Assembly: GCA_035538075.1 (NCBI GenBank)
Contig: DATLLB010000914.1
Span: 1 to 11,400 of the forward strand
DNA from: Enhygromyxa sp.
Lineage (GTDB): Bacteria; Myxococcota_A; Polyangia; Nannocystales; Nannocystaceae
Direction: 5' to 3'
DNA: 11,400 bases
The translations under genes and the position numbers were made by a program. Positions 1 through 695 of the stretch are shown here, in pieces. The number at the start of each line of letters is the position of its first letter. The stretch's first letter is position 1. The notes beneath the pieces were generated by a model. It made no database searches and was not told where the DNA came from. It saw nothing but the letters and a program-made list of their open reading frames with translations.

Positions 1-266
1 GCCCAGCGCTCCGCGTTGGCTCGCTCGCGCTGCTCGTAGGTCAGCTCGGGCCCTTCGCCCAGCAGGATGTCCCAGCTCGCTCGCGCGTCGCTGACCAGCT
101 CAGTGAGCGGCGACAGCTCTTCGACGATCTCGATCGTCGTCGCGAGATCGCTGGTTCGCTCGCTTCGCCACGCATCGAGCAAGGCGGCGAGCAGCTCGGC
201 CGTCCACCCGTCGCGCATCGCCGCGCGCACGAGCGGATGCACCGACTCGCCCGCCCAGCGCTCGCG
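1..266 (-). CDS. Hypothetical protein, 5'-partial (the N-terminal part lies in the window and the gene continues past coordinate 1). It is in the same frame as the 267..695 gene and separated from it only by a TGA. It may instead be the continuation of that gene.
   Basis: Reverse-strand translation from 266 down to 1 gives 88 codons with no stop: RERWAGESVHPLVRAAMRDGWTAELLAALLDAWRSERTSDLATTIEIVEELSPLTELVSDARASWDILLGEGPELTYEQRERANAERW. The composition is diverse and third positions are almost all G/C, starting with the first codon after the TGA. Possible starts are a GTG near 241-243 or an ATG near 214-216. No clear RBS. Confidence 0.4.
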
Positions 267-695
267 TCAACGCCGAGTACTGGAAGGAGTGGCGCGAGCC
301 AAGTCGTCGATCGTGATCGCCCGCCCGCTGTCGAGCGCGAGCTCGAGACTCGCGTACGCCAGCCGCAAGCTGCCGAGGCTGCCCCACACGACCATCGACG
401 CCGGATCGTCGCGCGTGGGCTTGCGCGCCTCGGCCTCGACCACGTTGGGCCGCTCGGCCACGATCGCGGCGAGCTCCTCGATCAGCGGCTCATCCCAGCG
501 ATCCGTGTACGGCAGATAGCCGAACGACTCGACGCCGTGGAGCTCCACGAAGAACGCCTCCCCGCGCGGCTCGAAGCGCACGCGCAGGTGTGGCAGCTCG
601 ATCGTCAGGCGGACGGTCGAGCCGGCACGCTGGATCGCCACCAGCGTGCCGTCGTGCAGCAGGTTCCAAGGGCTCGGATCGTCGCCCGCGATCAC
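267..695 (-). CDS. Hypothetical protein (142 aa) immediately downstream of the MVP homolog
   Basis: ORF with a GTG start at 693-695, located 3 nt after the MVP TGA stop (699-701) and in the same frame. G/C third-position bias is strong over about 135 codons. The amino-acid composition is diverse (W, F, Y, H present). The last 8 codons (ATPSSTRR*) use rare A/T-ending codons. No recognisable family. Confidence 0.6.
   Translation of the reverse strand: MIAGDDPSPWNLLHDGTLVAIQRAGSTVRLTIELPHLRVRFEPRGEAFFVELHGVESFGYLPYTDRWDEPLIEELAAIVAERPNVVEAEARKPTRDDPASMVVWGSLGSLRLAYASLELALDSGRAITIDDLARATPSSTRR

Follow-up and report, generated by a model that had tools for sequence, protein, structure and literature searches.

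A 26-nucleotide inversion interrupts an uncharacterised gene in an Enhygromyxa contig

Introduction

The stretch of DNA considered here, referred to throughout as the window, encompasses positions 1 to 11,400 of contig DATLLB010000914.1 (Enhygromyxa sp., assembly GCA_035538075.1) and is thus 11,400 nucleotides (nt) in length. Its minus strand harbors the first 231 codons of a gene (3..695) that begins with a GTG start at 695, is broken at codon 143, and runs off the contig at position 1. In relatives, the same gene encodes a protein of around 360 amino acids (aa). The gene is broken by a micro-inversion that lies wholly inside it. A 26-nt core, found on the minus strand at 267..292, is the exact reverse complement of the relatives' sequence and carries a premature TGA into the reading frame. 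The boundaries of the inverted block, the direction of the change and its effect on the reading frame are all apparent from comparison with homologous sequences. Taking the evidence as a whole, the best explanation is that the micro-inversion came about through a single template switch between strands, an origin that we consider probable.

The inverted block

When the minus strand is read from 695 to 3, the frame of 231 codons contains a single stop, the TGA at 267-269, and the remaining two minus-strand frames contain several stops each. The G+C content at third codon positions (GC3) of the gene's frame, taken over 12-codon windows, lies between 0.83 and 1.0 almost throughout. It dips to 0.58, 0.42 and 0.58 at 311-287 and to 0.42 over 299-264, and stands at 0.92 again directly after the TGA, where the first codons are CGC GAG CGC TGG. 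The dip is not a matter of chance, since three intact neighbouring genes provide 1681 such windows and only 2 of these have a GC3 of 0.5 or below. Over the same stretch, the frame offset by 2 reaches a GC3 of up to 0.92 (297-285).

An earlier note on this DNA, prepared from the letters alone, had drawn attention to these features. It reported one stop between 695 and the window edge and a third-position bias that returns in the first codon past the TGA, and both observations are borne out. The codons ahead of the stop had been described as ending in A or T, which is the case for five of the seven sense codons (act cct tcc agt act cgg cgt) but not for all of them. A stretch in an alternative frame had been described as perfect at its third positions; 11 of its 12 codons do end in G or C, but cga ends in A, and the full 12 of 12 is obtained if the stretch is read as ggc...acg. 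This alternative frame had been labelled +1, which needs correction, as it is +2/-1 relative to the gene. The 36-nt patch that the note delimited (262-297) is almost the same as the interval (264-299) over which the present analysis found a 36-nt reverse-complement match.

This match is to L001, a Logan contig from run ERR11770402, which aligns with window 6695..1 at 97.2% identity over 6697 nt. Window 299..264 is the reverse complement of L001 6436..6401 at 36 of 36 nt (blastn, E 1.2e-12), and at collinear positions no other opposite-strand match is significant. On the minus strand of the window the core reads CCACTCCTTCCAGTACTCGGCGTTGA, and the relatives have at this site TCAACGCCGAGTACTGGAAGGAGTGG, which encodes (V)NAEYWKEW. 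The core is bordered by two repeat arms, also given here for the minus strand, that are exactly 7 nt long, the flanking bases on either side being unpaired. The right arm, CGCGAGC at 260..266, forms part of the conserved W-R-E-R codons and is identical in L001. The left arm, GCTCGCG at 293..299, is its perfect complement, and includes two adjacent bases, TC at 296..297 (GA in L001), that make the repeat perfect, with 7/7 pairing versus 5/7.

The inversion leaves the length of the gene and its downstream frame as they were before. The TGA at 267..269 falls in frame because the inverted block reads ...ATPSSTRR*, and the stop itself is the reverse complement of a TCA that spans the codons GTC|AAC. 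The codon bias in the other frame is likewise accounted for, because the 26-nt core starts at codon position 2 and its inversion puts former third positions at position 2; codon position 2 of the gene's frame corresponds to position 3 of the -1 frame. When the core is turned back, the stop disappears and the frame is open, reading ...LARVNAEYWKEWRERW... (also given as ...ITIDDLARVNAEYWKEWRERWAG... and ...ITIDDLARVNAEYWKEWRERWAGESVHPL...), and the GC3 of the 12 patch codons rises from 0.42 to 0.92. The restored protein is 92% identical to P0001, one of the closest homologues, and is collinear with all homologues. Read as its reverse complement, the patch encodes RVNAEYWKEWRE, of which the VNAEYWKEWR portion matches P0001 at 9 of 10 positions; in its forward readings, either in frame as ATPSSTRR* or in the alternative frame as SRHSFQYSALT, the patch matches homologues at only 0-1 of 10 positions. 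All 13 homologues that cover the site carry the motif A-x-Y-W-x-x-W in the forward orientation, so the inverted state is the derived one and the polarity of the change is clear.

No other inverted cluster was found in the 6.7 kb common to the window and L001, and the remaining four genes that they share are intact. Mismatches to L001 also cluster at 543-550, 624-632, 2541-2568, 2811-2824 and 3012-3018, but these represent ordinary third-position or amino acid differences, and blastn found no reverse-complement explanation for any of the five. A second inverted allele, or further relatives, was sought by scanning metagenome_contigs and genome_contigs with a degenerate pattern for the core, GCNGARTAYTGGAARGARTGG; the scans gave 43 and 25 matches, respectively, all of them due to chance and none aligning to the gene.

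The interrupted gene and its homologues

A homologue search with the two halves of the disrupted gene joined together as the query returned 16 proteins, 11 of which cover 80-100% of the query and are 337-398 aa long. The full-length homologues are single proteins of 359-398 aa that cover 100% of the joined query and are collinear over the junction. The best matches, P0001 (359 aa, 88% identity), P0002 (362 aa), P0003 (361 aa) and P0004 (361 aa), all cross the junction unbroken and with the conserved motif, P0001 reading ...ITVDELASVNAEYWKEWRERWAGESVHPL... at this point. The only match of 142 aa is the window's own product, P0005, which is HVI03160.1 and whose 11,400-nt contig is spanned in full by the window. 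It is annotated by NCBI as an ordinary coding sequence (open reading frame, ORF, 267-695) under the name 'MAG TPA: hypothetical protein VM869_30900 [Enhygromyxa sp.]'. Among the three options that the earlier note had entertained, that of one disrupted gene holds good, given that the full-length homologues are single and collinear at the junction, but not with the pair of indels that was offered as the cause. Alignment of the joined translation with its orthologues, which the note had put forward as a check, meets single proteins of about 360 aa, with which the version carrying the re-inverted patch is collinear.

The family to which the gene belongs is uncharacterised. No family was found for either half, or for P0001, in Pfam, NCBIfam and PADLOC scans or in a PDB sequence-profile search. 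The AlphaFold model of P0001, with a predicted local distance difference test (pLDDT) score of 84.9, predicts an N-terminal domain rich in beta structure (1 to ~125), a long helix (129-147) and an all-helical C-terminal domain, and the inverted patch falls in the predicted helix. A stand-alone homologue of the N-terminal domain also exists (P0016, 148 aa). Judged by the predicted structure, the gene is cut short, from around 360 aa in relatives to 142 aa, and its product would consist of the beta-rich N-terminal domain and a scrambled start of the connecting helix, and the helical C-terminal domain would go unexpressed unless translation restarts.

The two parts of the gene differ in how far they have diverged from L001. 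Codons 1-134 contain 28 codon differences, 16 of them non-synonymous, and codons 135-231 contain 2; the adjacent 1 kb of the upstream gene, an MVP-like gene described below, has around 6 nucleotide differences (750-1750). As the part of the gene downstream of the break shows no decay, with 2 codon differences in codons 135-231, the inversion is probably recent. The divergence from L001 is mosaic (300-695 versus 1-260), and the divergent block has its downstream edge at the inversion. The block could represent either a recombination import or a fast-evolving N-terminal domain.

A separate observation concerns window 537-548 on the minus strand, where the sequence GTGGAGCTCCAC forms a perfect 12-nt palindrome within the codons V-E-L-H. 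The palindrome sits where 6 differences from L001 cluster; L001 has CTACACCTCCAC at this site, and two other relatives, L002 and L003, have GTGCAGCTCCAC and GTGCACCTCCAT, respectively. On what is weak evidence, it may reflect a second, small template switch that homogenised its arms, or merely preferred codons.

Origin of the inversion

The possible routes to the inverted state were compared over 101 nt, with L001 serving as a proxy for the ancestor. A linear alignment leaves 27 mismatches, the best plain in-place inversion leaves 7, and a single switch-and-return, in which 31-34 nt are replaced by the reverse complement of the core plus the right arm, leaves 5. These 5 are exactly the background differences that lie outside the event. 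Put the other way, the template switch explains all 22 of the local differences and the plain inversion explains 20.

The comparison turns on the left arm. In L001 this arm is GCGAGCG, an imperfect repeat that pairs with CGCGAGC at 5 of 7 positions, versus 7 of 7 for the arms in the window. The change of GA to TC at 297-296 creates GCT, the sole A/T-ending codon of the restored stretch. The TC at 296-297 is probably the product of arm homogenisation by the same template switch. In the proposed mechanism, the nascent strand would detach from its template at the left arm, which is the imperfect GCGAGCG in the closest relative, during either replication or repair synthesis, and would then copy the right arm and the spacer off the complementary strand before rejoining the original template at the right arm. 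One such event would both invert the spacer and rewrite the left arm as the perfect complement of the right arm (GA to TC, 297-296). We infer that a replication or repair template switch was the cause, and that the change of GA to TC was part of the same event. Near-perfect repeats that are made perfect in conjunction with spacer inversion are an established signature of inter-strand switching (PMC5453318), and the two changes, homogenised arms and an inverted spacer, have been documented together within coding genes, as in the case of REG2 (PMC8604942).

Several points weigh against this account. L001 is a relative and not the ancestor. The window and L001 differ by about 9% over one block, and the left arm is situated at its edge. 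The change of GA to TC could therefore be ordinary prior divergence that favoured the inversion, which would weaken the case for arm homogenisation but not that for the inversion. The combination of 7-nt arms and a 26-nt spacer is at the weak end of the range for such events. The single-strand hairpin is not unusually stable, with DNA folding giving z = -0.11 for the window and +1.19 for L001; folding thermodynamics neither support nor exclude the mechanism. The inverted allele, furthermore, is known from one assembly only, P0005 (HVI03160.1) forms a singleton cluster, and an exact-protein look-up of the 142-aa product returned no further contig.

With regard to the supply of suitable repeats, the 11.4 kb contain 88 pairs of perfect 7-nt inverted repeats with spacers of 10-40 nt, or around 7.7 per kb, in a contig of about 70% G+C. 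Given these 88 repeat pairs, substrates for template-switch inversions are present everywhere in the contig.

Alternative explanations

An origin outside the living cell is unlikely. Here, the inversion would have arisen in vitro, through a double template jump by the polymerase in library amplification, or else in assembly, with low coverage letting it into the consensus. The contig does come from a third-party metagenome-assembled genome, the inverted allele is confined to that one assembly, and the downstream half of the gene lacks the decay that would also be lacking if the gene were really intact. The absence of decay, however, also fits a recent real mutation. End-repair fold-back chimeras switch strand once, without return, whereas this contig aligns collinearly with L001 to either side of the inversion, and no similar anomaly occurs elsewhere in the 6.7 kb that can be compared. 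In de Bruijn assemblers, the graph becomes ambiguous only where the arms of an inverted repeat reach k-1 bases or more. Arms of 7 nt are far below any usual k, so the orientation in the graph is unambiguous, and an orientation ambiguity in the assembly graph was accordingly rejected as a candidate, the arms being far shorter than any k.

Much harder to sustain is a reversible intragenic inverton of the 'premature stop' type, in which the repeat would toggle the gene so that it gives either the full-length protein with two domains or products that are separate or truncated. The site bears a certain resemblance to the class described in Bacteroides, in that inverted repeats flank the block, the flip makes an in-frame stop, and the position falls in a helix that joins two predicted domains (PMC10028968). 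The existence of P0016, the stand-alone homologue of the N-terminal domain, would suit such an arrangement, and a further template switch can undo a spacer inversion (PMC8604942). Against this, the repeat measures just 7 nt, and the window holds 88 equally good pairs. It is absent from the homologous site in L001, L002 and L004, and amounts to 6 nt in L003. Every other member of the family is found in the forward orientation only. In the 11.4-kb contig, as distinct from the whole genome, no long ORF contains a recombinase or invertase domain, and the 26-nt spacer is well under the size of recombinase-driven invertons, of which the smallest cited is 57 bp.

Slightly more remote again is the notion that the perfect 7-nt repeat acts as a reversible switch without any enzyme, flipped by repeated template switching between a full-length protein and a free N-terminal domain. 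In this reading the free N-terminal domain resembles an immunity protein. If true, the switch would constitute phase variation without an invertase, operating at 26 nt, below any scale that has been described for invertons.

The remaining two explanations can for practical purposes be set aside. The first, that two compensating indels placed the 36-nt patch in another frame with SRHSFQYSALT as the true peptide, was prompted by the high GC3 in the +2/-1 frame over 297-264, but that phase shift follows arithmetically from inverting a block of 26 nt whose first base is at codon position 2. The earlier note's proposal of such indels is refuted: the alignment with L001 is ungapped and collinear, with no net length difference, the peptide matches homologues at 0-1 of 10 positions, which is no better than in-frame read-through, and the mismatches are explained by reverse complementation, the opposite-strand match extending over 36 of 36 nt. 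The second, that two genes abut at the TGA or that the TGA is decoded by readthrough, selenocysteine insertion or a programmed frameshift, can point to NCBI's annotation of ORF 267-695 as a 142-aa coding sequence and to the frame that is open beyond the TGA, and both of its forms had been listed in the note. It fails because 11 relatives of 337-398 aa run through the site with conserved residues, and no full-length homologue ends or starts there. Decoding fares no better, as the sequence that leads through the stop is non-homologous in every forward frame, the 10 residues before the TGA showing similarity to homologues at 0-1 positions in either forward frame, and the W of the homologues aligns with the stop position only relative to the reverse-complemented patch.

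Genomic context and implications

Upstream of the disrupted gene on the minus strand lies the MVP-like gene (699..3146), which encodes an 815-aa bacterial homologue of the major vault protein (MVP) with Pfam matches to MVP_shoulder (1.6e-27) and Vault_3 (1.4e-6), and which ends 4 nt ahead of the start of the disrupted gene. L001 has the same gene order over 3550-7080, with the MVP-like gene followed by the gene of the ~360-aa family. The pair is preceded by genes for an unknown 435-aa protein, FdhD and a rhodanese, an arrangement that is conserved in L001. In L004, the homologue of the disrupted gene is not beside an MVP-like gene. In the half of the contig that is not common to L001, three ORFs on the minus strand (6769-7488, 7510-9648 and 9707-11242) have no Pfam domain at E <= 0.001. 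The long shadow ORFs on the opposite strand, such as 237-2825 on the plus strand (862 aa), are artefacts of composition.

The wider relevance of the inversion lies in how it escapes notice. A micro-inversion keeps both length and downstream frame, with the result that it goes unseen in indel-based checks for pseudogenes, and in NCBI the fragment HVI03160.1 has an unremarkable entry as a hypothetical protein. In genomes of high G+C content, a local shift in the phase of GC3 that returns to frame without a change in length marks an inverted block and not a pair of frameshifts. In linear alignments, such events mimic clusters of more than 20 substitutions and can either inflate divergence or suggest selection.

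Comparison with known systems

Minute inversions associated with hairpins, in which the spacer of a stem-loop is inverted, are known from chloroplast genomes, where they are recurrent and found mostly in non-coding regions. The inversion in the window is similar to these in its short repeat arms, in its inverted loop or spacer, and in requiring no dedicated enzyme. In contrast to them, it is located in a bacterial protein-coding gene, which it disrupts.

The 'premature stop' intragenic invertons of Chanin et al. (PMC10028968) provide a second point of reference, since they too lie within genes, are flanked by repeats, introduce a stop, and cause gene prediction to split one gene into two ORFs. 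Those invertons are thought to be invertase-driven and reversible, a single population containing both orientations, and their repeats are around 11 nt long (as in thiC). The window differs from them in that its 7-nt repeat is unconserved and no different from background, its spacer is 26 nt, no recombinase is found nearby, and each assembly has one orientation.

The closest parallel is with the template switches that take place at quasipalindromes. An inter-strand switch was proposed by Ripley in 1982, and the present event corresponds to the spacer-inverting case of the four-point model of Loytynoja and Goldman from 2017 (PMC5453318), with examples from coding genes having been described by Abraham and Hazkani-Covo in 2021 (PMC8604942). 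The coding-gene cases in yeast have arms of more than 9 bp with spacers of 3-5 bp and lead to a few amino acid replacements (PMC8604942), whereas in the window 7-nt arms enclose a 26-nt spacer and the outcome is a premature stop. The ancestral state of the window is also taken from a 97% identical relative and not from a reconstructed parent. In other respects the likeness is close: pairing of the repeat is incomplete in the relative and complete in the derived sequence, the spacer has been replaced by its exact reverse complement with no change in length, and a dense cluster in the linear alignment (27 mismatches in 101 nt) is explained in full by one event. The class of event is already known, and the window provides a fresh instance of it that is biologically ordinary, being one disrupted copy of an uncharacterised gene. 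Its value is as a clean and naturally occurring bacterial case of a probable template switch, in which a 26-nt spacer has been inverted, 7-nt arms have apparently been made identical, and a gene has been knocked out, all in one step.
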